Counted from the stretch's first letter, positions 12,407 to 30,831 are shown. The stretch is 64,000 bases of DNA from a virus (IMGVR_UViG_3300036770_006330); one strand, 5' to 3'. Numbers and translations are program-made. Notes: generated from the sequence alone by a model not told the origin.

Positions 12407-15400
12407 ATGGCCCAGCTTATTGACCTTGGGAAAATTCGTTTTCATTGGGCTGGGACGTACAGCGCTGGCACCACATATGAACTAAACGATGTCGTCAAGT
12501 ACGAAGGCAACGTCTACGTCTACATCAACAATGCCGCCGGTTCCGGGAATAGCCCAACAAATACGAACTACTGGGCACTCATGGTCTCGGGAATCAAGTT
12601 CGAAGGGGCATACGACAACGGAACTGCCTACCAGGTTGGCGACGGCGTTTCCTATAACGGAGTGTTGTATGTCGCTCTGCAAAATACAACTGGAAATTTA
12701 CCGACGAACACGACGTACTGGTCTCGCTTTAACTCTGGATTTAGGTGGAGGGGCTCATGGTCCGCTTCGACTGCATACCTGCAGGATGACTTGGTATTTA
12801 ACGGATTGAGCACATATATTGCCACTGACTCTTTTACATCAGCTGGCCTCTTTGAAGACGATACAGACTGGGACCTTTTTGCTCTTGGTGCAAGCAACCT
12901 GCCAAATCAGGCCGGCAACTCCGGCAAAGTCCTTACTACTGACGGCACAACTGCGTCATGGACCACTAGCCCAACCCTTAATTCGCTTGTTGTCCAAGAC
13001 TCGTTTGAAGTGCTTGGAGATTCTGTCCAGCGCGGAAATATCAACATTTCATCCAGAACGGTAGTTGTTACCAACAAGGTTAAGGACAACAACGTTGGAA
13101 CAATCACTACAACTTCGGCACACTTTTTCGACCCAGGCGATGTCGTGGTTCTTTCCAGTGTTGGTGATGGATTCAACGGCAGCCATACGATTACTGCAGT
13201 ACCTTCTTCTACGACATTTGAATTCATTGCAACGGGTGGGAATGTTGTATCAACCCCTGTTGCTGGCGGAACGGCGACTGTGTATGGAAATATCGTCGCC
13301 TCGAACAATGTCTCCGTTGGTGGAGACCTCGCCGTAACGGGCGACGTAGAGGTTGATGGACCAGTAGTATTTGACGGACACCTGACAGTCAATAACGAGA
13401 TTCAGCTGAATGGCGACATCTTTGTTGACGTAGACGCAACAATCAAGGGCGACCTTTCAGTAACTTCATTGACTCGCTCAATCATCAACAAGGCACTTTC
13501 GGCCAGCGTGGCTACATTGACCACATCGGTCAGTCACGGATATGACGCCGGGGATACGGTTACCGTCTCCACAGTTGGAGCCCCATTTGATGGCGAATAC
13601 ACAATCGCATCAGTTCCAAGCGCAACGACATTCACATATGTTCGCAATGCGTCGAACGTAACTTCTGCTCCAGCTAGCGGTACGGCAGTGGTAAAGGGAG
13701 ATGCCAGTTTTGGAAATGACGTATCCGTTACGAGAAACATCGTCATTGATGGAACCGCACATGTGGGCGGTGAGCTGAGCTCGGACGGGGTTCCTTATTT
13801 TGGCCAAGACGCAAAAACAATCTCAGAATCAATCGGTCAAAGAACTGCTACCATCACAAATAAGGAGCTAACCGACAGCGTTGCGACACTGACAACCTCG
13901 TCAGCGCACGGCTTTTCTCCATTCCAGTACGTCATAGTTGATGGAGTCGATGCCGTATTTGACGGAGAATTTGAAATTATTGATGTCCCAACTCCGACAA
14001 CGCTCACATACTCCGTATCCGCCGCAAACGTATCCTCAACTGCTGCGTCGGGAACGGTTTCATCCATACCTGGATTTACCAATCCAATTGCATACTTTTC
14101 GACCGATTCTGACGACTACTCGCAAGTAATCGTCCAAAACCACTCAAGTAACGCAAATGCCTCAAGCGACTTCATCGCTTACCCAGACAATGGAGAAGAC
14201 TTCTCCGGATTTATCGACATGGGAATAACTTCAAGCACATTTGCCGACCCAGAGTTTACAATTACCGGTCCAAACGATGGATATATCTTCATGACTGCCC
14301 CAATTGGGACATCGGGGGACGGGAATCTCGTGCTTGCAACCGGAGACACCGGAAATGCAAACAAGATTATTTTTGCCGCTGGTGGTTTGTCGTCAAATAA
14401 CACCCAAATGGAAATCACCCCAGACCAGAACATTCACATCGAAATTGCAACCGAATCCACGTCGCCAACAACTGGCGCGTTGACAGTCGTTGGTGGCGTC
14501 GGCGTTCAGGGTGACATGAACATTCAAGGTGATGTTTCAATTGAGGGAACAATCACCTTCGGTGGCTCTGGGACAACCGTAGAAACAGCAAACCTCGCCG
14601 TAACTGACCCGGTAATTTTTGTTGGTACAAATAATCAAAATGACATCGTCGACCTTGGCCTAATCACCGAGTACACGATTGATATTGCCGACATTACGAG
14701 AACCGTTACAAACAAGGCGCTCAATAATAATACGGCCACGCTTACGACATCGGCGAATCACACTTTCGAGGTAGGCGACGTTGTCGTCGTGACTGGGGTG
14801 GACGCAACGTTCAATGGAACGTTCAATATAACTGGCGTACCGACCCCAACGACATTTACTTATGTGAAGACGGCGACGAACGTCGGCTCAACAGCATCCG
14901 GTGGAGAAGCAGTTGCAACACGACGCAGAAGATTTGCCGGTGTAGCGCGTGATGCTTCAGATGGAGTATTCAAGGCATTCCAAGGCGCAACAGCAAAGCC
15001 AACAACTACGGTTGACTTTGCTCAAGCTGGTCTTGAGTTTGCGGACTTTAATGCAAAAAATCTCGACCTAACTGGCAACATGTCTGCCTCAGGCAATGCT
15101 GCAATTACTGGCAATACATCTGTTGATGGAACACTTACCGTAACCGGAACATCGACTTTCAATGGCCCAATAACAACATCACAAAACGTAACAATATCTG
15201 GCCGGCTTGATGTTCAGGAAATACGCGAAGATGTGCTTGATGCAACAATCACTTCAAATATCCTGACGGCTGACTACAGCGCAGGGAACATATTTTATGT
15301 TGCAACAGCTCCAACCGCGAACTTCACAGTGAACCTAACAAACGCGCCAACCGACAACGGTAAGACAATATCCGTAACGGTTGTTGTTGTGCAAGGTGCT

Positions 15401-15577
15401 ACCGGATATATTCCAAGCGCATTCCAGATTGCAGGAGCAGCCCAGACACTGAGATGGTCGAGCAGCCTTACGCCGACACCGACAAGCTCGGCGGGCAAGC
15501 TGGACATATTCAACTTCACTCTTATCCGAAGAGCGTCGGCCTGGGTTGTTCTCGGCTCGGCGGTTACAAACTTCTAA
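12407..15577 (+). CDS. large tail fibre protein
   Basis: N-terminal WxGxYxxxTxYxxxDxVxYxGxxY repeats (x3), four ~75-aa TNK..ATLTT..HxFxxGDxVxV..FxG..VPxxTTF modules, beta-helical segments, C-terminal LRWSS..P..LDIFNFTL adaptor domain. Confidence 0.8.
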   Translation: MAQLIDLGKIRFHWAGTYSAGTTYELNDVVKYEGNVYVYINNAAGSGNSPTNTNYWALMVSGIKFEGAYDNGTAYQVGDGVSYNGVLYVALQNTTGNLPTNTTYWSRFNSGFRWRGSWSASTAYLQDDLVFNGLSTYIATDSFTSAGLFEDDTDWDLFALGASNLPNQAGNSGKVLTTDGTTASWTTSPTLNSLVVQDSFEVLGDSVQRGNINISSRTVVVTNKVKDNNVGTITTTSAHFFDPGDVVVLSSVGDGFNGSHTITAVPSSTTFEFIATGGNVVSTPVAGGTATVYGNIVASNNVSVGGDLAVTGDVEVDGPVVFDGHLTVNNEIQLNGDIFVDVDATIKGDLSVTSLTRSIINKALSASVATLTTSVSHGYDAGDTVTVSTVGAPFDGEYTIASVPSATTFTYVRNASNVTSAPASGTAVVKGDASFGNDVSVTRNIVIDGTAHVGGELSSDGVPYFGQDAKTISESIGQRTATITNKELTDSVATLTTSSAHGFSPFQYVIVDGVDAVFDGEFEIIDVPTPTTLTYSVSAANVSSTAASGTVSSIPGFTNPIAYFSTDSDDYSQVIVQNHSSNANASSDFIAYPDNGEDFSGFIDMGITSSTFADPEFTITGPNDGYIFMTAPIGTSGDGNLVLATGDTGNANKIIFAAGGLSSNNTQMEITPDQNIHIEIATESTSPTTGALTVVGGVGVQGDMNIQGDVSIEGTITFGGSGTTVETANLAVTDPVIFVGTNNQNDIVDLGLITEYTIDIADITRTVTNKALNNNTATLTTSANHTFEVGDVVVVTGVDATFNGTFNITGVPTPTTFTYVKTATNVGSTASGGEAVATRRRRFAGVARDASDGVFKAFQGATAKPTTTVDFAQAGLEFADFNAKNLDLTGNMSASGNAAITGNTSVDGTLTVTGTSTFNGPITTSQNVTISGRLDVQEIREDVLDATITSNILTADYSAGNIFYVATAPTANFTVNLTNAPTDNGKTISVTVVVVQGATGYIPSAFQIAGAAQTLRWSSSLTPTPTSSAGKLDIFNFTLIRRASAWVVLGSAVTNF

Positions 15578-17341: not shown

Positions 17342-17932
17342 ATGGCATTTGCATACTTTGCCGTCTATGTAGACGACAAGCATTCCTTCCAGCAGTACGA
17401 AGAAATCGGTTACTGGTTGAGCTACCACATATATCGGGTCGAATCGTCAGTCATAACAAGAATGACATTTGGTGGAAAGCGTGTAATTTTTATGCCAGAG
17501 AATGTTGCCATGGCATGGAAATTTGCAGGAGCAAATAGGCCATTCATAAGGGTTAGTGGCTCTGGCTCAAAACAGCACGAACAACTGCCAAGCGACATGT
17601 TGATTCAATACAAGCCCGAAAAGGTCGACTATTTTCTTACGGAAGAAGATAATCAAAACGCCATAGCATTTATGAAGCTGATTATTCGCGGTCTAGCACA
17701 CCAGTACTACGAGCAAATCTGGGAGTCCATAAAACCACAAGTGTCAAGGCTCGAGGAACTTGGTTCTGCAGCTGGCGTATCAGTGCAACTTAAGAAAAAT
17801 CCAGAATATGCACGATTGCTAGAGGGCGTCCTTGGCCGTCTGGGGACAACGGAGGCACGTCTATCTGCAGCGAAAACCATCGCCGACTGTAATGAAGTTC
17901 TTAAACAGCTTCAAATCGATGTTGGTATGTGA
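17342..17932 (+). CDS. hypothetical protein
   Basis: 196 aa, tightly coupled in the operon. Confidence 0.55.
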   Translation: MAFAYFAVYVDDKHSFQQYEEIGYWLSYHIYRVESSVITRMTFGGKRVIFMPENVAMAWKFAGANRPFIRVSGSGSKQHEQLPSDMLIQYKPEKVDYFLTEEDNQNAIAFMKLIIRGLAHQYYEQIWESIKPQVSRLEELGSAAGVSVQLKKNPEYARLLEGVLGRLGTTEARLSAAKTIADCNEVLKQLQIDVGM

Positions 17933-19584
17933 TGTTTAGCGTCCCACTCAATCCGAAACTGTCAGAGAACGAGTTCACTGATTTTTTAGACTTTCTCAAA
18001 AGAAATAGAGAAGTAATTTATGATTTTTACTTCACCTGCCGAATGCCGCCATTTATTCAGGATGCGATGGGTGATGTATTCGGTGGAGGGGAAGAGGACC
18101 ACAGTTTCCTAATAGAGACCGCATTATTTGTTCAGCAGGAAACCGGCATACCTGCGTCTGCCGTGTTTAACAATCTTAATGTTCGACCGACACAGAACAA
18201 TCTTGATTTGTTTATAGCAAACTTTGGGCAACTCTATGAAGCGGGGATACGTTCCGCGACTATCCCTCATACACACTGGATGGCTACTGGTTTGATAAAG
18301 AAAAACTTTCCAGAGCTATTCGTCAAAAATACGATATTAAGAAACGTCACAGAACCAAGAGATGTTGAGAAATTAGCCAAGGCTGGATTTGACTACATAA
18401 ATCTGGATAGAGACCTCATGAGAGACCACGAACGACTTCTCCGGTTCAAGAAGGCCAAAGAGATATTTGGCGTCAAATTGTCGATACTTGGCAATGAAGG
18501 GTGCCTCGGCGGATGCATCATGATGGATGAGCACTACGAATTTAACAACACGCGGACCACCGGCCCGCAATATTTCATGGACCCAATCAGCCGGGTGTCA
18601 TGTCCAAAATGGGATTTTGAGGATTTGGCCGTCCCACTTAAGACAGCGAACCTTCCGCCATGGCGAGAAGACTGGGTGGAGATGTTGGAGCATCTTGGAA
18701 TAGATGTGTTCAAAATGCATGGTCGGGAGTCTGTGTCTAGATTGCAAGAGACGATGGGCATCATTGACCGATTTGTTGCAAATGAGCCGATTCTCTTCGA
18801 CACATTCAACAGTTACTTAGAGGAAACAAACCTGCTAGAAAGACCAATCGACGTTTGGCGAAAGAAAATAAAGACGTGCAAGTTCGATTGCTGGGACTGT
18901 GGTTACTGCGACAAAATTGTAAAAAACAAATTTAGAGAGAAAATACACCCGAGAGTAAGGCTTGTTACACGTGCTCTAGTTGAGTCAGTCGATACGAATC
19001 TGGACATAGATATTGCAGGTCTTACAAGCAATAGGGTTCAGTCATTGATTAATTATCTAGCAAGAGAGTCAGCCGCATATCTGGAAGTAGGCACATTTCT
19101 TGGGGCAACAGCTGTTGCTGCAGCAAAAGACACAACAACCAATATCACCTGCATAGACACCTGGGAAGAAGACATACAGCCTGCAGAGCTTAATGATGTT
19201 CTGCCAAGCAATTCAATGCATGATGCGTGGATGAACATAAGCAAGCATGCTGGAGTTGGCAGGCTCAAATTCATAAAATCAAAATTTCAGGATGTCGATA
19301 TAGAAGAAGTAGGAAATCCTGATTTAGTCTTCTACGACGGACCACACAGCGCTACTGATGTTGCTGATTTCGTATCTCGCTTTTCCGGCATATTTAGTGA
19401 GGGAACGATTTTGGTTTTCGACGATGCAAACTGGGGGGATGTGAAGGCAGGCGCAGATGATGGGCTTAGGCGTTCCGGGCTGTCAACACTTTATAGAAAA
19501 CAACTTCTCAACGAAATTGAGTCAAAACAGAACTGGTGGAATGGCTTATACATAGTCGTTGTTGGGGCTAGAATTCGGCCATGA
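17929..19584 (+). CDS. U32-peptidase-like Fe-S protein fused to class I SAM methyltransferase
   Basis: GFDYINLDRDL, NEGCLGGC..H..SC, FKMHGRE, CKFDCWDCGYC; C-terminal YLEVGTFLGA, CIDTW, VFYDGPH, LVFDD. Confidence 0.65.
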   Translation: MMFSVPLNPKLSENEFTDFLDFLKRNREVIYDFYFTCRMPPFIQDAMGDVFGGGEEDHSFLIETALFVQQETGIPASAVFNNLNVRPTQNNLDLFIANFGQLYEAGIRSATIPHTHWMATGLIKKNFPELFVKNTILRNVTEPRDVEKLAKAGFDYINLDRDLMRDHERLLRFKKAKEIFGVKLSILGNEGCLGGCIMMDEHYEFNNTRTTGPQYFMDPISRVSCPKWDFEDLAVPLKTANLPPWREDWVEMLEHLGIDVFKMHGRESVSRLQETMGIIDRFVANEPILFDTFNSYLEETNLLERPIDVWRKKIKTCKFDCWDCGYCDKIVKNKFREKIHPRVRLVTRALVESVDTNLDIDIAGLTSNRVQSLINYLARESAAYLEVGTFLGATAVAAAKDTTTNITCIDTWEEDIQPAELNDVLPSNSMHDAWMNISKHAGVGRLKFIKSKFQDVDIEEVGNPDLVFYDGPHSATDVADFVSRFSGIFSEGTILVFDDANWGDVKAGADDGLRRSGLSTLYRKQLLNEIESKQNWWNGLYIVVVGARIRP

Positions 19585-20507
19585 ACTTTTCTGTAGAGAC
19601 ATTTACAGCGAACCAGGAGTATCTCATTCTCCTGGCCCTTGTAATGGGCCTTTCCTTCGCCGCAAAGCGGACCCAGGTGTTTTTGCCCGTGTATGCCTTT
19701 ATCGCGCGTCACGTGCGCTCTAAGAGGGCTGTGGTGGCTCTTATATCGCTGGTATCCGGTGTGCTTCCAATAAATGGGAGGGCATCGGTATCGGCTGGCG
19801 CGCTCGACACCATAGCCCCAACATCACCAAGCAAGAAGAAAAGTAAAGAGATGTACGGAGTTATTGACTATCTTTCTACGCATCACTATTACTTCTGGTC
19901 GCCACTCGAGGCGACGGTGCTCGTGCCGATGGCAACACTTGGCCTGTCCTATGGACAATTCATGGGGCGCATGTGGCCACTACTTGCAACGGCGGCAGTT
20001 GTGATTCTGTTTTATATCTTTATGGTTCTCAAGGAGAGCGATATAGAGATAAACGTTTCAAAGAGGAAGTCGAAGCCATCAGCAGACGAGGACAGGGCGC
20101 AGATAATTTCCTATGCAAAAACGCTTGTATTTGTTGCCGGTGTAATTGTTCTTGGAAACTTCGCCAAAGAAAATTTTGACACCATAAACCAGTTTGTTGA
20201 GTCAGCTAGGGACCACGGGTTCCTGGTCCTTGTTGCTCTGGCTGGATTTTTGGCAAGTTTTGCACTTGGGAGCAGCGGCAAATTTGCTGGGTTCACTTCA
20301 CTTTCGGCGAGCGTTTTTGGTGTCGAGTATCTTCCTTTGTTTTTTGCAATTGATTACGCCGGTTATATGTTGAGTCCTGCACATAAATGCTTAGCGATAA
20401 CAAAGTCATACTTCGGCACAAAAATTTACGACCACTACAAAGCAATTCTCTCGCTCGTAATCCCAATTGTAGCAGTCGGGATTTTAATGTTTTTGACAAT
20501 TGACTAG
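19581..20507 (+). CDS. polytopic membrane protein (transporter-like)
   Basis: About 8-9 hydrophobic segments with internal duplication (HHYYFWSPLE / YAGYMLSPAH). Confidence 0.6.
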   Translation: MNFSVETFTANQEYLILLALVMGLSFAAKRTQVFLPVYAFIARHVRSKRAVVALISLVSGVLPINGRASVSAGALDTIAPTSPSKKKSKEMYGVIDYLSTHHYYFWSPLEATVLVPMATLGLSYGQFMGRMWPLLATAAVVILFYIFMVLKESDIEINVSKRKSKPSADEDRAQIISYAKTLVFVAGVIVLGNFAKENFDTINQFVESARDHGFLVLVALAGFLASFALGSSGKFAGFTSLSASVFGVEYLPLFFAIDYAGYMLSPAHKCLAITKSYFGTKIYDHYKAILSLVIPIVAVGILMFLTID

Positions 20508-21208
20508 TGCGCAAGAAACAAATTTCGTTCATGGCAATGTCCGAGGACATTGCGCATAAGCTCAACCCACCGATACACGCGCGAGCATTTTTGCCAAAAT
20601 GGTATATTGATTCAACTGCATTTATCGGCGGCAAAATGCTAATTGGAGAAAATGGGATAAACAAAGACTTAAAACTTTGCATCCCATTTCTTGATGCCAT
20701 GACAGCCGGATACTGCGTTGAACTATCTTGTGATGTTTATGTGGAAAGAGATGGAAACAAAATTGGGTTCTATTGGCACGAAGAGCCATTCCCGATAACG
20801 TCACGGCCAGAGGGAATAGCAGCCAATCTGCCGCGACCGGCCGGTCACATACAACAACTACACGCATGGAGCATCCATTGGGCATCAATGACCCCACCCG
20901 GATATAGCGCACTTTTCTGCCATCCGCTCAACAGGTACGATTTGCCGTTTATCACAACTTCCGGGATAGTAGATACAGACAAGTATCACCCCGGAGGAGA
21001 AATACCATTTTTTCTTAAAGAAGATTTCACCGGAGTTATCCCAGCAGGAACCCCGATAGTACAAATTATTCCACTGAAACGGGATGCATGGTCATCGAAA
21101 AATGCGAAACTGGACAAACAGCTTATTTCAAGGTTGCGCTATGCGGTGTCGCGCGTGCTCATTGGCGGATATTCAAAAATGTTTTGGGTGAAAAAACAGT
21201 ATGAGTGA
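20507..21208 (+). CDS. DUF6065-like protein
   Basis: PKWY, KLCIPFLDAMTAGY, TPPGYS...HPLN, SGIVDTD, IPAGTPIVQIIP. Confidence 0.55.
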   Translation: MRKKQISFMAMSEDIAHKLNPPIHARAFLPKWYIDSTAFIGGKMLIGENGINKDLKLCIPFLDAMTAGYCVELSCDVYVERDGNKIGFYWHEEPFPITSRPEGIAANLPRPAGHIQQLHAWSIHWASMTPPGYSALFCHPLNRYDLPFITTSGIVDTDKYHPGGEIPFFLKEDFTGVIPAGTPIVQIIPLKRDAWSSKNAKLDKQLISRLRYAVSRVLIGGYSKMFWVKKQYE

Positions 21209-21860
21209 GTTCCCGACTCGCATGATTTGCGGTCCAGAAAGTGAGTGGCCAGTACTTCCTGGGGCATTCGGCACTGGGCCAGAAAATATTGTTGTCATCC
21301 GAAACTTTATCGAAGCAGAAGACCTGGCTCAAATCCAACAATTTTGTCCAACCATAAACAAATGGAATAATTCAACTAGGTCTGTATATGCAGAAGATGG
21401 AACATGTCTTTATAACGCAGAGTATTGGCAAGACCGCACCTGTAGTTCGTGGATTCTTGAAGAACTATCTCCAACAATTTATGAACTAGTAAATAAATAT
21501 ATTGTCAAAATGAAGGAAACAATCGAGCAGCATTTTCGAGTCAAACTAGAGCAAAGGCCACCGGTAATTATGTGCTGGCGCCCTGGCATAGAACAGCTGC
21601 CCCACGCGGACAAGCAGGTGAATGACGGACGACCAAATGCGTTCCCGACCTACGACTTAAATTCCCTGTTTTACTACAACGATGATTTTGAAGGCGGAGA
21701 GCTCTACTACCCGCAACATAACATAACCATAAAGCCCGAACCAGGAATGGCTGTTTTCCATCCTGGGGATATTCATTATTTGCATGGGGTATCGATGATT
21801 ACCGAAGGGCTCAGATATACCACGCCGTCTTTCTATACCGTCACCGAGTTCCTCGACTAG
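21201..21860 (+). CDS. 2OG-Fe(II) oxygenase (prolyl 4-hydroxylase-like)
   Basis: HAD...YYNDDFEGGEL...HGV...RY. Confidence 0.9.
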   Translation: MSEFPTRMICGPESEWPVLPGAFGTGPENIVVIRNFIEAEDLAQIQQFCPTINKWNNSTRSVYAEDGTCLYNAEYWQDRTCSSWILEELSPTIYELVNKYIVKMKETIEQHFRVKLEQRPPVIMCWRPGIEQLPHADKQVNDGRPNAFPTYDLNSLFYYNDDFEGGELYYPQHNITIKPEPGMAVFHPGDIHYLHGVSMITEGLRYTTPSFYTVTEFLD

Positions 21861-21876
21861 GGACTAGTATTTCCGC

Positions 21877-22560
21877 ATGGACAAAATCTCGATAAATGTG
21901 TCTTTTGTAGACGACCCACGGCTTGGAATTATGGTGTACCACAACGCTCTGCCAGAAGAGCTGAGGTTGGTTGAGAGGCTCGAGAACACCATCGGGGACA
22001 GCTCCACAAAGCCTTATATGTGGATGGAGGCCCTGGTGGGCCACTCCGAAAAGATTCCCGAGTACAGGAATTGCTACGACTGCAAAATGAGCTCAAAGCT
22101 CGTTGATACAGCTCCACCAGAGTTCGCAGAGCTAAAAAATATTTGGAACGATACCGTCTCTCGATTGGTTCCATGTTTGAATCACTACCAGCAAATGCAC
22201 AACATAAAAATGGACTATATGGAAGCCATTAACTATGTTAGATACAACGAAGGGGAGCACTTCAGCTATCACGCCGACCATGGGTTTTCGTACGTGTGCA
22301 CTATTTCATCAATTATGTATCTGAATGATGGGTACGAGGGTGGCGAGTTGGCCTTTTCTAAACTGGGAATACAGCTAGAGCCACAGTACGGCGATATCGT
22401 GATATTCCCATCAACATATATCTACACCCACGCATCGCTACCGGTGCGGAGCGGTACAAAGTACTCCGCAGTGACGATGTTCGACTATAACGACAATAAT
22501 CACATCAAAGAAAACAACAGCATGCCCTCCGCAGAGGCCTATCTTGCCGGTGGACAATGA
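21877..22560 (+). CDS. 2OG-Fe(II) oxygenase (prolyl 4-hydroxylase-like)
   Basis: HAD...YLNDGYEGGEL...FPS..H..PV..GTKYS. Confidence 0.9.
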   Translation: MDKISINVSFVDDPRLGIMVYHNALPEELRLVERLENTIGDSSTKPYMWMEALVGHSEKIPEYRNCYDCKMSSKLVDTAPPEFAELKNIWNDTVSRLVPCLNHYQQMHNIKMDYMEAINYVRYNEGEHFSYHADHGFSYVCTISSIMYLNDGYEGGELAFSKLGIQLEPQYGDIVIFPSTYIYTHASLPVRSGTKYSAVTMFDYNDNNHIKENNSMPSAEAYLAGGQ

Positions 22561-23264
22561 CAACTGTAGATTTCATCAAAACATCTCCGCGGACAACACC
22601 AGTAAAACAGTCAAGAATCAAAAGAGACTGGATGGATGAAACCCACAAGAAACATGCCTACCAGTGCCTCCCAATGACTGCGGCAAACACATACGGATGG
22701 GAGTTCATTGTCGAAGAAGATATTACCTTTCAGTGGGACGGTGGGCCAAATCCGCCAAATATTTTAAGTGGCGAGCACACCTCGTACGGCAGGCTACAGG
22801 CAACCCCGTCCATAAACGGAATGATTTCAATTAACATGGGATGGGTTGTCAAAACTGAAGAACCATATTGGACGTGGCTGTCTGGCTCCCCAAACTATTT
22901 TAAAGATGGCATTTCGCCCCTATCTGCAACTATTCCGGCATGGTGGTGGCCAGACGAGGTACAAATGAATTGGAAAATACACAGCCCCAACCAGACAATT
23001 ACGTTCCATGCGGGTGAGCCGTTTTGCTTTCTCAACATTTACAAGCCTTCAGATATGGCTGAAGTGACAGTCAAGACATCAGGCATGTGGGATTACCCTG
23101 GTCTTTCCGAAAAACGCCAGAAATATGGCCAAGTCAAGTCTGACAACATGCGAGAAAACCCGTGGACTTGGACAAAGGGCATCCGTACTGGAATCGATGC
23201 CGATGGGTGCGTAATTGGTCCGCCAACGTCTGGCATGGTCGTCATACAGACACCGGAGCAGTAA
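22557..23264 (+). CDS. DUF6065-like protein
   Basis: RDWMD..HAYQCLPMTAANTYGW, GSPN, MNWKI, FHAGEPFCF. Confidence 0.7.
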   Translation: MTTVDFIKTSPRTTPVKQSRIKRDWMDETHKKHAYQCLPMTAANTYGWEFIVEEDITFQWDGGPNPPNILSGEHTSYGRLQATPSINGMISINMGWVVKTEEPYWTWLSGSPNYFKDGISPLSATIPAWWWPDEVQMNWKIHSPNQTITFHAGEPFCFLNIYKPSDMAEVTVKTSGMWDYPGLSEKRQKYGQVKSDNMRENPWTWTKGIRTGIDADGCVIGPPTSGMVVIQTPEQ

Positions 23265-24118
23265 TGGACGGCATACACCTTGGTGGCGGGGTTGTGTTGT
23301 TTGAGAATGCAATCACCGTACCGCAATTTGAGATTTTGCCGCATATCGACGAGATGAAGGAGCGATGGCGCCGAGAGAACTTCGAGATTGTCTATGACGA
23401 AAACGGAAAAGCTATTCATGCCATAAATAAGGGCGGATTTATATACAGCATGGATGCTATGAATAGTGCTCCAGTCAGGGTGCAGGGTTTGAGCCATCCA
23501 TTTTTCCATTCGTGTGAAGCGGCTATATACGCAAAACTTTTGGAATACATCGAGTTTTTCCCGGCACTACTGCAATGCCTGTGGTGGAAAAGCGCAGGAC
23601 ATGTTCTGTGCTACGAATCGGGGGCCTCACTGGGGCTGCACTGTGATAATGACGTTAATTACAGATATGGATATATTCCGGATACGGAGCACGCGACGCG
23701 CAATGTTGTTAGCGCATTGATTTATCTGAATGACTCCACAGATGACAATTTGGTTCCGTACTCTTTTTCTGGCGGGAAAATGGATATCCCATACTTCGAT
23801 ATTGAGATAACTCCACAAACGGGGTCAATATTGTTCATGCCAGCAAATTACCTTGGCGCTCATGTTGTAAAAGAAGTTACGCGTGGGGTTAGGTATTCAT
23901 ATTTGTCTTGGTTTGCTCAGGGCGACGCGGCTCCAGCAAAGGGTGTGTCCCCAAAGGCGTGGGGAAGCGGGAATGATGTAATTGATGGCCAATGGTGGCT
24001 TGAGACAGTAATAGAAGATTACAAAGATTCCGTAATGCGCAGGCATGCCGGAGACCAATCAACAATAAACAAGCTCCTTCATGTCCAATCGCGACAGCAC
24101 GACCATGCTAAAAATTAA
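23264..24118 (+). CDS. 2OG-Fe(II) oxygenase
   Basis: Start moved to ATG overlapping upstream TAA; HCDN...YLND...GG...AHVV...RYSY. Confidence 0.85.
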   Translation: MDGIHLGGGVVLFENAITVPQFEILPHIDEMKERWRRENFEIVYDENGKAIHAINKGGFIYSMDAMNSAPVRVQGLSHPFFHSCEAAIYAKLLEYIEFFPALLQCLWWKSAGHVLCYESGASLGLHCDNDVNYRYGYIPDTEHATRNVVSALIYLNDSTDDNLVPYSFSGGKMDIPYFDIEITPQTGSILFMPANYLGAHVVKEVTRGVRYSYLSWFAQGDAAPAKGVSPKAWGSGNDVIDGQWWLETVIEDYKDSVMRRHAGDQSTINKLLHVQSRQHDHAKN

Positions 24119-24968
24119 AGATATCCCAGACCCTGTAGTGCTCGGAACTGGAGTTCTATTATTCCCCGGAGTTCTCGATGTAGACGTGCCGCAAGCTGTT
24201 TCCGTATGCGAACAGCTTGTATCTGACGAGTTTGCCAGCCAATACTCTCCAGCTTTCAACGAGCAAACAGGGGAAGACGAGTACGTCAATAGAAGTGGAT
24301 ATTTCTTCTCCAAGGAATCCCTACTCACAATGCCAAGACGGTGCACGACCGCACATGAGTCAGATAGCGAACAAGTCGTAAAAATGTTAACAACTCTCGA
24401 GAGCGCGAAAGATGAATGTATCATTCGATACATAGCAATGTATCCAATCGTTCTCAAAACGATATGGTGGAAGATAAAGGGTCATATAGTTTCATATTCC
24501 CCCAACAGAGGAGGAATCTACCTTGGCCCACATTCAGACAATAGCGTGGATTATAAATACGGGTTTCCTCACCCCTCTCGCCAAATCGCCACCAGGGGTG
24601 TTGTTTCATGTCTTTGTTACATAAATTCTCAGGGGGATAATGACTACGGGTTTACTGGCGGTGACCACTATTTCAACTATTTGGATATTTCATATTCGCC
24701 AAAATCGGGAGATATTCTCATGTTCCCATCAAATTTTATTGCGGCGCACGAAGTGAAGCCGGTCGAGTCGGGCAATAGATATTCATATCTTGGTTGGTAC
24801 TCACATGGAACCCCAAATCCAGAAGTTGGAGAGCATGTATCAGACCCGAATACCGAAGACACATCAAAGCAAACCAATGTATATATGCCAGACCTGGAAG
24901 AGCGCGTTCGCGCATACACATCTAGCGAAGGTGCGAAATACGATAAACACTTGGTTAACCTAATTTAA
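24105..24968 (+). CDS. 2OG-Fe(II) oxygenase
   Basis: HSDN...YIN...FTGG...FPSNFIAAHEV..V..GNRYSY. Confidence 0.85.
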   Translation: MLKIKDIPDPVVLGTGVLLFPGVLDVDVPQAVSVCEQLVSDEFASQYSPAFNEQTGEDEYVNRSGYFFSKESLLTMPRRCTTAHESDSEQVVKMLTTLESAKDECIIRYIAMYPIVLKTIWWKIKGHIVSYSPNRGGIYLGPHSDNSVDYKYGFPHPSRQIATRGVVSCLCYINSQGDNDYGFTGGDHYFNYLDISYSPKSGDILMFPSNFIAAHEVKPVESGNRYSYLGWYSHGTPNPEVGEHVSDPNTEDTSKQTNVYMPDLEERVRAYTSSEGAKYDKHLVNLI

Positions 24969-24971
24969 CTA

Positions 24972-25682
24972 ATGAAAGCTTTTCATTATGGCTGCGGTGT
25001 AGTGGGGATAACTGGTCTTTCTACGCTTTCAAAAGAACAAATAGCAAAACTTGTGTCTGCTGGTTCAACGGATAAGCAATTCATATATGATGAAATAAAG
25101 GGTTGCTACATCAACGCTGGTGGCTATGAGTTCACAGAAGAACAAATGGCGGCCAGTCCTCTGCGGTTGACAGACCTGGGAGAATGTTCTCTTGGACAAG
25201 AGCAAAAACAAATGGATGAAGATATTGAAGCAGCGCTGTTGAAGTATCTATCCATGTTCCCGATAGCACTTGAAGCTATTAACGCATATATATCCGGTTA
25301 CTTAATTTATTACTCTGAGGGCCAATTCATTGGGGCACACTCAGACAACGCAATGGCGTATAACGGTGATTTACCGGTATCCGGTGCTCCAATCGGAAAC
25401 ACCCTTACCTGTGCGTATATTCTAAATTCAGACCATGAGGGTGGAGCTGTGCGGTTTCGAACCTGGGGCATTTCGCTGTCGCCCAAAGCGGGAGACATAC
25501 TCATCTACCCGTCGTCTTTCATCGGCGCCCATGAAGTTGAACCGATTGTCGGAGGAAAGCGATGCGCCTACATCTCCTGGTTCGGTCAATCGGCAAGCAG
25601 CACAAAGCAACTACAGGAAAAGCTCAGAAACATGCTTGGAGGTCAGGCGGAACACCGAACTGCCCTAATTGGCGAGTTTTAA
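24972..25682 (+). CDS. 2OG-Fe(II) oxygenase
   Basis: HSDN...LNSDHEGG...YPSSFIGAHEV...GKR. Confidence 0.85.
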   Translation: MKAFHYGCGVVGITGLSTLSKEQIAKLVSAGSTDKQFIYDEIKGCYINAGGYEFTEEQMAASPLRLTDLGECSLGQEQKQMDEDIEAALLKYLSMFPIALEAINAYISGYLIYYSEGQFIGAHSDNAMAYNGDLPVSGAPIGNTLTCAYILNSDHEGGAVRFRTWGISLSPKAGDILIYPSSFIGAHEVEPIVGGKRCAYISWFGQSASSTKQLQEKLRNMLGGQAEHRTALIGEF

Positions 25683-25910
25683 TTACCACTTCCCAATTGG
25701 GCAGACGGCCTCTCGAAGCTTTACTTTTATTGGCATGATGCAGCCGCATTCCTTACACTGTTTTGTCGACTGTATGAGTTCCGGGCATGAAAGACAGGTT
25801 AAATACCTGGCTTTTACAACCTCTGGGTCGTCATGATGCTTTGCTGGGTCGAGAATATCCCAAGGACGGGTCGAGCCCAGTTTCTTTTTATATTCTGACC
25901 ATGCGCTCAT
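25683..25910 (-). CDS. small Cys-rich metal-binding protein (DUF6171-like)
   Basis: RYLTCLSCP...QCKECGCIM..K..L...CPIGKW. Confidence 0.8.
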   Translation of the reverse strand: MSAWSEYKKKLGSTRPWDILDPAKHHDDPEVVKARYLTCLSCPELIQSTKQCKECGCIMPIKVKLREAVCPIGKW

Positions 25911-26143
25911 TCTGGTGCCGTGAAATTGCCTTCACCGTCGTGTTTCCACCCGTACATCACAACACCTTTTTGCTCTGGTGCAAGTTGAACAATTATCGGG
26001 TTGGATGTCCAGAGTGCAATTAGCTCTTCGTTGTCTGCTGGAACCGGGAAAACTTTCCCAACTTCACCGTCGACGACAAAGGCAAAAAACTCATATTCAT
26101 GCGGATGGGTGCTTATTGGGTTAAGTGGTTGTGTTTGGTCCAT
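25907..26143 (-). CDS. hypothetical protein, paralog of 9765..10085
   Basis: YEFFAFVVDGEV...WTSNPIIVQLAPEQK. Confidence 0.7.
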   Translation of the reverse strand: MDQTQPLNPISTHPHEYEFFAFVVDGEVGKVFPVPADNEELIALWTSNPIIVQLAPEQKGVVMYGWKHDGEGNFTAPE

Positions 26144-26178
26144 ATTTACATCCTAGCTTATAGATATTCTGTCGGCTA

Positions 26179-26802
26179 TCAACATTCACAATACTGAAAT
26201 AGGCCATACGCATGGCAACCGTCAGACGACACGTAAATATCCCATACTGAATATTTGCAGTATATTTCACAACACGGAGAACCGCCGGTGCACGCATCAA
26301 GACGCTGGTCATTAGAGGAAAGAACCCATGGAGATGCCGGTGGAACGCTGCTTGGGAAAGGCGAGAAGCATGGCGGCGGGAAGTGTGGCGGGAAGTATGG
26401 TGGGAAATATGGCGGGAAGTATGGGCCGAACGAAGGCGGGAAGTATGGCGGAAAGTATGGCGGAAAGTATGGACCAAAAGACGGGGGCAATGGTGTTACG
26501 GAAGATGTTGAAATGACGTCTGAATTTACAGAGTTATTGCCGCGAGCTACGATTGTGAATGAATAAGACTGAGCGGACGATAGACCGGTAACCTGTCCAG
26601 TCATGGATGCACCGGGAGCAGAAAATGATACGACCCGGGTTACATTTCCTGGAGATGATGTAATTAGGAAGTCAACTATCCCTTTGCCGACTCGCGCTGG
26701 AGCAACAAAATTAACATTGGCAGAGTCAACTGCGGCGGCCGGCGTTTGTGGTGTGGGGGTATCTGGTTTTTTCCCAGAACCAGATGTATTTCCAACTATC
26801 AT
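26179..26802 (-). CDS. fibronectin type III + (PPYF)n + Cys-rich protein (putative fibre tip)
   Basis: FN3 signature VTGLSSAQSYSFTIVARGNN; nine xPxF tetrapeptides; 8 Cys in the C-terminal 64 aa. Confidence 0.75.
   Translation of the reverse strand: MIVGNTSGSGKKPDTPTPQTPAAAVDSANVNFVAPARVGKGIVDFLITSSPGNVTRVVSFSAPGASMTGQVTGLSSAQSYSFTIVARGNNSVNSDVISTSSVTPLPPSFGPYFPPYFPPYFPPSFGPYFPPYFPPYFPPHFPPPCFSPFPSSVPPASPWVLSSNDQRLDACTGGSPCCEIYCKYSVWDIYVSSDGCHAYGLFQYCEC
26380..26487 (-). repeat. 12-bp tandem repeat x9 encoding PPSF-GPYF-PPYF-PPYF (x2) then PPHF
   Basis: Plus-strand units such as ggcgggaagtat with synonymous variation and a 48-bp higher-order period. Confidence 0.9.
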
Positions 26803-27770
26803 GTTGCGCTCAGGTCACCAACTAGATACCACTCGTCTGCCGCTCTTTTAATTAATGTGGCTGATGAATATTGGGCTCTTAAGAACGAGCCAGGGGTTGC
26901 TCTAACTGTAGTTGTAGCAGGGCTCGCCGCAACGATTTGTGTTTTCCCAGCACCATATTGAACGACGTGAATTTGAGTACCTACGGGGAATGGAGCCGCA
27001 GCGTTGGTGGGGACGCTAACTGTATTGTTCGAGCCAACATTCATTTCAATCATTTTGTTTTTATCATTGATGTTTATTGCGTAGCTAGCCACTTTTGTGT
27101 CAATGGTCATATCGGCAATTTTGTTTTGTTCTATTGCGGCAGTCGCCGAAACATCAGCGTTGACTATTGACCCAGAGCTTATCGACGTTACGCCGGCATT
27201 GCTAATTGTGACATCGCCAGTAACAGATACGGCCGTGGGGACACCAGAAGCGTTGTGGACTATCACCTGAGCGGAAGTTGCGCTTGCAAGCTTTGACAAA
27301 GCGATACCAGCAGACGCATTTATGTCAGCGTTTACAATTGTGCCGTCAACAATTTTGGAACTTGTAACAGAATTGTCGCCTATAACGCCAGCTGCAATTC
27401 CGGTAATCACCCAGCTATTAGCGGCTCGCTTAATTAGGGTTGCCCTTTGCCACTGGGCGGCAATCGTAGTTACGCCTGCTTCTGCATCAACTGTCACGCC
27501 GCCAGCACCAACGAGCGCGACCAGACCAGTAGAACCATTAAGTATTTCGATGATATCGCCGATTTCAAATGCAGTTGTTGAATCAGATGGTATCGTAACG
27601 ATAGTTCCGCCGTTGTTTTGAAACTCGACAAGTTTGCCCCTGTCTGCTAGTACCAACGTATAGGTGGTACCGGACTGCACGTTGCGCGTGTAGTTATAAT
27701 CGCTGGCCTGCAGGGTATTCATCTGCGATGCCGTCAATGTTTGTCCAGCAATAAATGTTTGAAGCGCCAT
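26799..27770 (-). CDS. baseplate-attached tail fibre with two copies of an adaptor domain
   Basis: TFIAGQTLTASQMN start; duplicated YTLVLADRGK...ATLIKRAANSW / YAININDKNK...ATLIKRAADEW; follows baseplate genes. Confidence 0.75.
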   Translation of the reverse strand: MALQTFIAGQTLTASQMNTLQASDYNYTRNVQSGTTYTLVLADRGKLVEFQNNGGTIVTIPSDSTTAFEIGDIIEILNGSTGLVALVGAGGVTVDAEAGVTTIAAQWQRATLIKRAANSWVITGIAAGVIGDNSVTSSKIVDGTIVNADINASAGIALSKLASATSAQVIVHNASGVPTAVSVTGDVTISNAGVTSISSGSIVNADVSATAAIEQNKIADMTIDTKVASYAININDKNKMIEMNVGSNNTVSVPTNAAAPFPVGTQIHVVQYGAGKTQIVAASPATTTVRATPGSFLRAQYSSATLIKRAADEWYLVGDLSAT

Positions 27771-27817
27771 AATTACTTACTCCTACTCACACCAAGTATA
27801 ACTTAACAGAAAATTGG

Positions 27818-29325: not shown

Positions 29326-30831
29326 TTAAACGACCACGACCTCAACCGAGGCTCTAGGCAGAATGCCTGCGTAGAGCATTGCATATCCAAGCAAATTTCC
29401 ACCATCATTAAGTTCCTGGACGAGCTCTTCGTTGTTGTAACGGACTCGGATATCTCCAGCAAATTGAGGAGCTGTATATTGAGGGACCGAAGACGCGACG
29501 CTATACACATATGACACGCCAGGAACCTTGCTGGCGCGAACAACTAAATCAAAAATGCGAACTACGCTGTCCCAGTTTGGCCAGTTTGCCGGAGAAACAT
29601 ATTGTTCAAGGTCTTCGGCAGCATTCAATGCAACCTGACCAGCACCGTATTCGGGGTCTACAGAAATTGTCACCGTGAAGTTCAAATCGACTGGATATGC
29701 ATCAAGAATTCGGAATGACAGACCTGCCGGTATGCGATTGGCAATATCAATGGCAATATCCTCTTTGGTCTTGGTGTAAACGGGAGAACCGTTCTGGTCG
29801 CAAATGAAGATAACGAAGTGCCCTGGCCAATCGCCAACTTGGCCCAACTCAATAGACTCCATCGACAAAACGTCAACAGGACCAACCGGATATGCCGGCG
29901 TGCTGGATACTACATCGTTATAGTTCAACGTTGTTGAGTTGGCCGAAGCGGCGGAATAGACACCCGAAATGGCAATGGTTTCAAAATCAGTTTCGCCATA
30001 GAAGTCTGGGGCCAACACCATGAATAACCCGCCGCTTGGTGAATTGGAAATGAACTCTGAGCTGACCGTAATATTCGCGTCGTACTGAACTTTTAAGAGG
30101 TTTGCCTCTTCATCGTCAGCATCATAGAAAACGGCTTTTGTTAGGTCATATACCTTGCATCTATGCACTTCTGGGTAAGTAGAAAGAATGTACTTTTCTA
30201 CTTGTTTTGCCGTTGCCAATACAGAACTTAAAGATTCGAGTTTGGTTGTCCCACGATTGAAATACTCAGCCTCGGTCTCTGCTCTAGCACCTTGCGATAT
30301 GGCAGACGCAGTAGTTGCGGACAGCACGGTCGTGCTGGGCTGCGAAAGAACCAATGGCGTGCCAGCCGGGATATTTGGAAGAATGCCAGCCACCTGCGAC
30401 CTAGCAGTAGCCGTAACGGTCACCGAAGCGCTATCCGCAGTGACTGTGCCAAGCAATTCGAACGGATATTGAACAGAAATATCACCTTCGGTTGTTTCGT
30501 ACACCGCAATCGTCCCAGCTGGGACTGCGCCGCCTGGTTCATCGAGTTCATACTCAATCGATACTGTTCCAAAAGTAGCTTCTTTGCGCAAGATGTCCAT
30601 GTAGCGCAACACGCCCTCCATCAGCCCATCCGGCAGGCGGTTTATGTTACCGAGGTTCAATGATGATATGTATGAAGTTGCTTGAAGCAGCGCGTCTTCG
30701 ACGGTACCTGCTCGCGGTGAAAATTCAGGAAGAGCAACTCTTGCGTAATCAACAGCCTCATCGTAGATTTCATCTGGCTGTTTATCATTGATTGTTAAAT
30801 CGATGTATTGTGAAAAATCTGGAGATGGCAT
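29326..30831 (-). CDS. baseplate J-like protein
   Basis: LPEFSPRAGTVEDALLQA, VPAGT, GARAETEAEY, C-terminal VPGVSYV. Confidence 0.85.
   Translation of the reverse strand: MPSPDFSQYIDLTINDKQPDEIYDEAVDYARVALPEFSPRAGTVEDALLQATSYISSLNLGNINRLPDGLMEGVLRYMDILRKEATFGTVSIEYELDEPGGAVPAGTIAVYETTEGDISVQYPFELLGTVTADSASVTVTATARSQVAGILPNIPAGTPLVLSQPSTTVLSATTASAISQGARAETEAEYFNRGTTKLESLSSVLATAKQVEKYILSTYPEVHRCKVYDLTKAVFYDADDEEANLLKVQYDANITVSSEFISNSPSGGLFMVLAPDFYGETDFETIAISGVYSAASANSTTLNYNDVVSSTPAYPVGPVDVLSMESIELGQVGDWPGHFVIFICDQNGSPVYTKTKEDIAIDIANRIPAGLSFRILDAYPVDLNFTVTISVDPEYGAGQVALNAAEDLEQYVSPANWPNWDSVVRIFDLVVRASKVPGVSYVYSVASSVPQYTAPQFAGDIRVRYNNEELVQELNDGGNLLGYAMLYAGILPRASVEVVVV

Follow-up and report, generated by a model that had tools for sequence, protein, structure and literature searches.

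We analysed a stretch of viral DNA of 64,000 nucleotides (IMGVR_UViG_3300036770_006330, hereafter the window, always meaning the whole stretch) in which a bank of five 2-oxoglutarate (2OG)-Fe(II) oxygenase genes converges on the gene of a tail protein containing a tandem Pro-Pro-x-Phe (PPxF) repeat (Table 1). The pairing of such repeats with such oxygenases is beyond chance and recurs in hundreds of uncultured phage contigs. Judging from this linkage and from the class of the enzymes, we assign a probability of roughly 0.6 to the reading that the core oxygenases hydroxylate prolines of the phage's own PPxF tail. The conserved core of the cassette consists of a fibre homolog, the tail protein, oxygenases of two types (oxygenases 1 and 2 of the window), and the dUTPase-fold protein DUF6065, and the Cys knob at the end of the window's tail protein is accessory.

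The original prediction, made from the sequence of the window, had proposed co-occurrence of PPxF repeats and oxygenases across phages as a check, and we analysed this co-occurrence in both directions. For the forward comparison, a degenerate DNA pattern for (PP[YF]F)3 retrieved at least 120 viral loci, of which 120 were used (1.06 Mb), and a random 14-mer provided 118 viral loci as a control (0.98 Mb). Open reading frames (ORFs) matching the window oxygenases with a phmmer E-value of 1e-3 or lower were considered oxygenase relatives. These were found in 84 of the 120 repeat loci (311 ORFs) versus 2 of the 118 control loci (3 ORFs), and when only loci of at least 8 kb were considered the counts were 53/68 and 2/55, respectively. 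Among the 15 long repeat loci that did not contain an oxygenase, 6 were on contigs with PF13640 genes elsewhere, and all 15 contigs are fragments (5% to 54% complete). For the reverse comparison, an alignment of oxygenase-2 orthologs retrieved at least 590 viral stretches. The best 80 loci were examined, and 59 contained a PPxF ORF, as did 40 of the 42 loci of at least 12 kb and none of the 118 controls. The co-occurrence put forward as a check was thus strongly present in both directions. The arrangement of the genes was also nearly constant: in 128 of 130 cases the PPxF gene had its nearest oxygenase on the downstream side, in the same direction in 92 of these and in the convergent orientation of the window in 36, and the median distance was 503 nt. 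On long contigs the repeat gene was directly followed by 6 to 12 oxygenases and DUF6065. In 596 Gb of prokaryote genomes, the pattern was present in 28 stretches only; the long arrays among them, which lie on contigs of metagenome-assembled genomes, carry oxygenase 1, oxygenase 2, DUF6065, and fibre genes, whereas the isolated (PPFF)3 matches do not. Five such contigs (L322, L329, L337, L341, and L345) hint at Verrucomicrobiales, Gammaproteobacteria, Cyclobacteriaceae, Chitinophagaceae, and Acidibacter as possible hosts. When the loci were clustered, whether by nucleotide identity or by the flanking ORFs that they share, a single-linkage component swallowed most of them, a collapse probably caused by the repeat DNA, antisense ORFs, and extra module genes, and lineage diversity was gauged instead by N-terminal domain families and repeat-unit variants. 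Because the loci are related to varying degrees, contingency p-values overstate their independence.

Core partners were found in 66 loci (oxygenase-1 type), 73 loci (oxygenase-2 type), and approximately 60 loci (DUF6065), and the most common adjacent gene pairs were fibre to tail protein (93, with the fibre homolog directly upstream) and oxygenase 2 to DUF6065 (72). The repeat tail follows a domain of binding type, FN3-like in the window, and is joined to 13 unrelated N-terminal families in all; an oxygenase was present in the locus in 80 of 93 members of the FN3 family and 21 of 27 of the PASTA-domain family (Pfam). We also approached the cassette from the fibre protein, fetching 80 loci and analysing the 43 with at least 5 kb downstream. 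Among these, 14 contained canonical PPxF and oxygenases, 1 contained PPxF only, 12 contained neither, and 16 contained oxygenases without the PPxF pattern. By inspection, at least 9 of the latter 16 encode variant tails at the same position (PPPF, PPGFF pentads, FP[FY]F, TPPV, or poly-Pro). One of the loci, L346, which carries the closest relative of the window fibre, has a PPPF tail, and its fibre gene, tail-protein gene, and two small ORFs succeed one another and meet convergent oxygenases just as in the window. The oxygenase bank thus goes with a tail that is rich in Pro and mostly aromatic, irrespective of the precise repeat unit. A window of 40% Pro was tried as a general detector of such tails and discarded, as PPGFF-type tails were missed. 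Short PPxF stretches were also seen in another context, as linkers ahead of FN3-like domains in a family of large proteins of approximately 800 to 1400 aa (L015, L017, L019, L029, L060, L115, L120, and L127); the contig of L017 has six oxygenases elsewhere.

For the tail protein of the window, translation and Tandem Repeats Finder, which reported a period of 12 and 8.2 copies, confirmed the predicted repeat of nine PPxF-type units (26380-26487; PPSF GPYF PPYF PPYF PPSF GPYF PPYF PPYF PPHF) and the 8-Cys domain that follows it. The two 48-nt halves of the repeat differ at 9 positions and all 9 differences are synonymous (approximately 2e-6 expected if changes were random), so that the selection on the peptide proposed from synonymous variation between repeats is borne out: the repeat peptide is under purifying selection. 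The predicted FN3 domain was under threshold in the window itself (PF00041, 16 bits versus a cut-off of 25) but is supported by relatives, with scores of 23.5 bits in P0001 (74% identical), 25.1 bits in P0003, and 36.2 bits in P0004. A protein search with the tail protein gave 64 relatives, the majority of which have a precomputed PF00041 assignment, and the 23 relatives that we read mostly consist of FN3 and (PP[YFH]F)n, to which a Cys-rich end is added in some. Across the loci, Phe is fixed at position 4 of the unit, and F, Y, and H dominate position 3.

The ends of the tail proteins differ. Among 117 tail proteins, 50 terminate as soon as the repeat is complete (...PPGFK or PPRFK); a Cys-rich ending was found in 26, an apparently Hint-like one in 5, and an ending of another kind in 36. 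The original prediction pictured a stalk presenting a Cys knob; the C-terminal 66 residues of the window's tail protein do contain 8 Cys, but this knob is optional, a Cys-rich end being present in 26 of the 117 tail proteins. The 8-Cys domain (26182-26379, minus strand) has a weak likeness to the spider knottin family Toxin_21 (17.7 bits versus a cut-off of 21) and is probably just a small disulfide-rich knob. In four loci (L014:3762-5012, L044:6071-7390, L058:517-1863, and L084:8066-9304) the repeat is followed by a Hint/intein-like domain (...PPRFG|CINEDT...) whose Pfam matches do not reach the threshold (Hint_2, 18 bits; Intein_splicing, 23 bits). Self-cleavage, if this domain is real, would release a free repeat C-terminus resembling the short ...PPRFK forms.

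The presence of five 2OG-Fe(II) oxygenases within 4.5 kb (21201-25682, plus strand), converging on the tail operon, was confirmed. All five translations retain the HxD...H iron triad and, for the C5 carboxylate of 2-oxoglutarate, a basic residue (Lys or Arg) 10 positions past the distal His, and oxygenases 2 to 5 pass the PF13640 (2OG-FeII_Oxy_3) cut-off of 27 with 41 to 48 bits. The start of oxygenase 3 was set at the ATG overlapping the preceding stop, an earlier alternative being a GTG at 23162. The five enzymes split into separate ortholog groups. Counting orthologs with a score of at least 80 bits among PPxF loci, we found type 1 in 66 loci and type 2 in 73, and types 3, 4, and 5 in only 12, 8, and 4 loci, which makes three of the five enzymes accessory. 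We built profiles from the orthologs of oxygenase 2 (A2) and oxygenase 1 (A3), in which H132, D134, H185, and K195 (A2) and H135, D137, H195, and R205 (A3) are invariant. Profile A3 matched collagen prolyl 3-hydroxylase (P3H) 1 (P3H1, 8k0e; E 2.9e-8), the prolyl 4-hydroxylase (P4H) of Bacillus anthracis (BaP4H, 3itq; 1e-6), and PiuC, and profile A2 matched BaP4H (5hv0; 1.6e-6), the lysyl hydroxylase LH3, and vCPH of the chlorovirus PBCV-1 (5c5t; 0.0038). Oxygenase 2, the only one of the five that was folded, gave a model with a pLDDT (predicted local distance difference test) of 91.1, whose top Foldseek matches were 2jig, 4iw3, 5c5t, 3gze, PHD2, 7zsc, and 5hv0 (E 7e-11 to 1e-9). These include the P4H of Chlamydomonas, PPHD of P. 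putida with EF-Tu, PBCV-1 vCPH, human collagen P4H (C-P4H)-II, and BaP4H, so that the top matches of the predicted fold, a double-stranded beta helix, are almost exclusively prolyl hydroxylases. The P4H-type class named in the original prediction is therefore upheld for the core enzymes, which are prolyl-hydroxylase-like by profile and, for oxygenase 2, also by predicted fold. Single-sequence PDB searches with oxygenases 3 to 5 gave weak matches at best, and none for oxygenase 4. Several 2OG-Fe(II) paralogs are named 'DNA endonuclease V', 'ferrochelatase', or 'minor coat protein' in RefSeq and in PHROGs 2297, 274, and 3531 (and in the cyanophage Syn9, NC_008296, 36-45 kb); such names seem to have been carried over in annotation and could misdirect automated interpretation.

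Two dUTPase-fold genes in and beside the oxygenase run, which the original prediction had omitted, are part of the conserved core. The DUF6065 gene proper is found immediately after an oxygenase-2-type gene in 72 cases. Its model (pLDDT 94.3) matched dUTPases in Foldseek (E 1.4e-5; VIA Z 10.4), and W25, C37, G47, and W205 are invariant (Cys37 in 53 sequences). The protein encoded at the start of the run (20507-21208), for which a Pfam search gave no match, is a distant paralog: a profile-profile comparison of its family with the DUF6065 group using hhalign gave a probability of 96.1% and an E-value of 3.3e-9, with Cys58 of the paralog aligned to Cys37, and homologs of this protein were found in approximately 40 PPxF loci. 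A possible function of DUF6065 is that of a partner of oxygenase 2 without catalytic activity of its own. A small protein is linked to the type of tail ending. A Cys-rich ending was present in 21 of the 25 loci with a DUF6171-like gene versus 4 of the 85 loci without it (Fisher p 7e-15, loci not dereplicated), and the DUF6171-like protein may assist the Cys knob with folding, metal, or disulfides.

The nearest precedent for a viral P4H together with a virus-encoded Pro-rich repeat is the chlorovirus PBCV-1, in which a virus-encoded P4H-type 2OG oxygenase (vCPH) and short Pro-rich tandem repeats are found in the same genome. In vitro, vCPH acts as a hydroxylase on peptides of the (PAPK)n type, and it ranks third among the fold matches of oxygenase 2. 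PBCV-1 infects eukaryotic algae and has one such enzyme, whereas the window belongs to a tailed phage with a bank of five oxygenases (up to 13 elsewhere) and dUTPase-fold partners, its repeat is Pro-Pro-aromatic-Phe, and its repeat gene and enzyme genes are kept together as a fixed cassette at the fibre locus. The combination of a viral P4H and a viral Pro-rich repeat is thus already known, and what appears to be new here is a phage PPxF tail tied to an oxygenase bank. The best profile matches of the core enzymes come from the collagen systems (C-P4H with protein disulfide isomerase (PDI), and P3H1 with CRTAP and CypB) and from BaP4H, with which they share the metal triad and the basic residue. 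By analogy only, two distinct hydroxylases beside a Pro-Pro dipeptide recall the 3-hydroxyproline-4-hydroxyproline of collagen, and a fixed non-oxygenase partner recalls PDI or CRTAP. Unlike collagen, the repeat is built on a four-residue period without Gly-X-Y triplets, the partner protein is of the dUTPase fold rather than a PDI or a CRTAP, and no triple helix is implied. The label extensin-like, given to the repeat in the original prediction, fits as an analogy and not as membership. Like the plant extensins and hydroxyproline-rich glycoproteins, the repeat is Pro-rich with aromatic residues and could form an extended polyproline-II stalk once hydroxylated, but it lacks Ser-Pro(3-5), Tyr-X-Tyr, and SPPPP, and its invariant aromatic residue is Phe. 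No glycosyltransferase was seen adjoining the oxygenase bank.

A related bank has been described in a phage. Iyer, Abhiman, de Souza & Aravind (2010) reported an array of tandem dioxygenases and halogenases in the cyanophage Syn9, for which they proposed organohalogen metabolites as products, and predicted protein substrates (collagen-like and tail-collar proteins) for bacterial operons only (PMC2938197). As in the window, the Syn9 array consists of divergent classical 2OG-Fe(II) dioxygenases in tandem, lies just past tail-fibre genes, and is accompanied by a dUTPase-fold protein with a conserved cysteine. Syn9 differs in having two tryptophan halogenases and a JmjC (MINA-like) protein (gp41, gp42, and gp49), and when the ten genes at 17929-26802 were scanned against Pfam and PHROG, neither a halogenase nor a JmjC family was detected. 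Small-molecule tailoring is the sole mechanistic proposal that we found for phage 2OG-Fe(II) oxygenase banks (PMC2938197). The literature searched, which did not cover subscription journals, contained no account of DUF6065, of a phage PPxF tail, or of a link between tail and oxygenases, and nothing pertinent on phage prolyl hydroxylases or on hydroxyproline in phage fibres.

Altogether, the genes suggest the following mechanism. Late in infection, oxygenases 1 and 2 would use Fe(II), 2-oxoglutarate, and O2 to hydroxylate prolines in the (PPxF)n tail, which would be exposed and probably in polyproline-II conformation. The P3H-like and P4H-like enzymes may divide the Pro-Pro dipeptide between them, and the accessory paralogs 3 to 5 could add hydroxylations, with the repeat or the optional Cys-rich end as their target. 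DUF6065 would partner oxygenase 2, the DUF6171-like protein would serve the Cys-rich ending that it tracks, and the modified tail would be a stiff stalk or an adhesive on the fibre apparatus. From gene position alone we infer that the tail protein is in the virion, and its role as substrate and the identity of the modified residues are likewise put forward as candidates. A complex prediction with oxygenase 2 and tail residues 92-152 gave a score of 0.00 in both runs, performed without controls, and has no bearing on the mechanism in either direction. More broadly, many uncultured tailed phages may run a multi-enzyme modification of their own fibre apparatus, in which a Pro-Pro-aromatic-Phe tail becomes a heavily hydroxylated and possibly cross-linked stalk or adhesive, a proposal that we make tentatively. 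On an equally provisional footing, the system might combine P3H-like and P4H-like enzymes with a variable complement of further oxygenases and a dUTPase-fold partner of a new kind that has an invariant Cys. It might be a phage counterpart of collagen or extensin maturation, and would then explain the oxygenase banks noted in phage genomes since approximately 2010.

Several observations weigh against hydroxylation of the tail by the bank. Hydroxylation of any member of the family is argued from genomic linkage and enzyme class, and the loci that provide the linkage are phylogenetically non-independent, with phage backbones that could not be cleanly separated. Approximately 7 of 30 fibre-homolog loci with oxygenases lack a recognisable Pro-rich tail in the stretch examined, and an oxygenase was present in the locus in 0 of 8 members of the large-protein family with internal PPxF stretches. 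In Syn9, where the related bank likewise includes a dUTPase-fold gene, no PPxF protein was seen near the array and Gly-rich fibre proteins are found instead. Finally, the near structural neighbours of oxygenase 2 include EF-Tu hydroxylases (4iw3 and 5v7y), so the fold alone cannot name the substrate.

These observations leave room for other substrates. If the oxygenases modified another structural protein of the phage, such as the fibre or the Cys-rich end, the PPxF tail would be a mere syntenic neighbour. Fibre homologs accompany the cassette nearly as often as the tail does (75 loci, 93 adjacencies), and the approximately 7 fibre loci with oxygenases and no recognisable tail agree with such a target. 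However, 12 fibre-homolog loci without a Pro-rich tail have no oxygenase, the bank tracks the tail across unrelated N-terminal domains and across changes of the repeat unit, and the Cys-rich end is present in only 26 of the 117 tail proteins. Prolyl-hydroxylase-type enzymes also suit a Pro-rich target, and the window fibre is not Pro-rich. We therefore consider this explanation unlikely, if the least so of the alternatives. It is rather improbable that the bank tailors a small molecule or a non-ribosomal peptide, as published for the related Syn9 array, whose reading is secondary-metabolite tailoring (PMC2938197). Several diverse paralogs in a row do resemble a tailoring cluster, and genes for a methyltransferase-domain protein and a membrane protein (17929-20507) are translationally coupled upstream, but these upstream genes (551-aa and DUF401) are missing from the other loci and no scaffold-building enzyme was found among the genes examined. 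Moreover, the core enzymes are closer to peptidyl-prolyl hydroxylases than to small-molecule oxygenases, and small-molecule tailoring leaves the linkage to the repeat protein unexplained.

The same linkage makes us doubt strongly that host proteins are the target of the oxygenases, which would then reprogram the cell by hydroxylating, for instance, EF-Tu or ribosomal proteins in the manner of bacterial PPHD and BaP4H, or that the oxygenases, as metabolic genes, draw down 2-oxoglutarate. The second-best fold match of oxygenase 2 is the P4H of P. putida bound to EF-Tu (4iw3), 5v7y is listed too, and cyanophage papers assume a metabolic role (PMC9602691), but neither the downstream position of the oxygenases in 128 of 130 cases nor the two-way co-occurrence is accounted for by a host or metabolic target. 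An action on nucleic acids, in repair or base modification of the AlkB, TET, or JBP kind, is very improbable. PHROGs 2297 and 274, with DNA endonuclease names, match the oxygenases, and there is a weak match to Tet_JBP (16.8 bits, far under the cut-off of 34.9); however, these names look like annotation carry-over, and no AlkB, TET, or JBP structure was among the profile and fold matches listed, nearly all of which are prolyl and lysyl hydroxylases.

Few of the unexplained gene sets in aquatic phages are as conspicuous as the banks of 2OG-Fe(II) oxygenases, and a linked peptide encoded by the phage itself is a testable candidate substrate for these enzymes. If hydroxylation of the tail by the core oxygenases is true, it would be an enzymatic hydroxylation of a protein of the phage fibre locus, a modification of which we found no report in phages. 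DUF6065 and DUF6171 would gain a role as well. Protein engineering could benefit from natural enzymes of the P4H type that come paired with short repeat substrates.

The cassette lies in a divergent tailed-phage contig in which we recognised genes for a terminase, a portal, a prohead protease, baseplate J, and a 1615-aa protein of tape-measure size (Table 1). A megablast search of 20500-27800 against 50,697 GenBank phage records found no close relative, tblastn of the tail protein, P0030, and DUF6065 against these records gave no match (low-complexity masking may hide the repeat), and no isolate with the cassette was identified among them. A search of the window detected no tRNA genes.

Table 1. 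Genes of the oxygenase and tail operons in the window, in order of position.
Feature	Position	Strand	Evidence and remarks
551-aa protein and DUF401 membrane protein	17929-20507	+	Coupled translationally to the start of the oxygenase operon
DUF6065 distant paralog	20507-21208	+	phrog_7084 E 5.5e-40; end overlaps oxygenase 1 start by 8 nt
Oxygenase 1, core type	21201-21860	+	H135-x-D137...H195...R205; PF13640 23.2 bits, below cut-off of 27
Oxygenase 2, core type	21877-22560	+	H132-x-D134...H185...K195; PF13640 48 bits
DUF6065, dUTPase fold, Cys37	22557-23264	+	PF19541 149.5 bits versus cut-off of 26.6, E 1.4e-43; overlaps oxygenase 2 end by 4 nt
Oxygenase 3, accessory	23264-24118	+	HCD...H...R; PF13640 41.8 bits
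Oxygenase 4, accessory	24081-24968	+	HSD...H...R; PF13640 41.3 bits
Oxygenase 5, accessory	24972-25682	+	PF13640 41.4 bits; PDB 3dkq (PKHD-type hydroxylase) E 1e-4
Small Cys-rich DUF6171-like protein, 75 aa	25683-25910	-	phrog_13558 E 2.4e-16; DUF6171 21.6 bits, below cut-off; last gene of the operon
78-aa protein, no family match	25907-26143	-	Weak homologs at the same position in L346, L348, L359, L362, and L381
Tail protein	26179-26802	-	FN3-like, approximately residues 13-100; (PPxF)9, residues 106-141; 8-Cys end, residues 142-207
Fibre or minor tail protein, 323 aa	26799-27770	-	phrog_8780 minor tail protein E 1e-33; phrog_16053 tail fiber
Baseplate J-like wedge protein	29326-30831	-	PF04865 55 bits; phrog_6 baseplate wedge subunit

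The plus-strand operon encodes, in this order, the 551-aa protein, the DUF401 protein, the DUF6065 paralog, oxygenases 1 and 2, DUF6065, and oxygenases 3, 4, and 5, and the overlap of ORFs at most of its junctions suggests translational coupling. The order of the minus-strand tail and baseplate operon is baseplate J, a 418-aa protein, the 323-aa fibre, the tail protein, the 78-aa ORF, and the 75-aa DUF6171-like ORF. The presence of baseplate J places the tail-protein gene in a baseplate/fibre operon, and the stop of the fibre gene overlaps the start of the tail-protein gene. The repeat gene had been predicted at the tip of this operon; it is instead third from the end, followed by the ORFs at 25907-26143 and 25683-25910. 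The two operons converge stop-to-stop at 25682/25683 with zero bases between them, and the transcripts of the converging oxygenase and tail operons probably overlap. The sole terminator-like site near this junction is a weak minus-strand hairpin (25795-25809) within the last gene, of a kind no commoner than in shuffled sequence.

At the other end of the plus-strand operon, the 551-aa protein, for which phrog_1458 is a match, carries a Methyltransf_24 domain at its C-terminus. Its gene and the DUF401 gene are absent from all other loci examined. The methyltransferase could conceivably modify hydroxyl groups made by the oxygenases. A U32-like domain was considered for the N-terminal 344 residues of this protein and rejected, as there was no Pfam match and no meaningful PDB match. 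Further upstream and outside the main structural operon, 12407-15577 (plus strand) encodes a protein of 1056 aa that combines carbohydrate-binding modules (CBM_5_12) with bactofilin-like (beta-helix) repeats and is probably a spike or a fibre.

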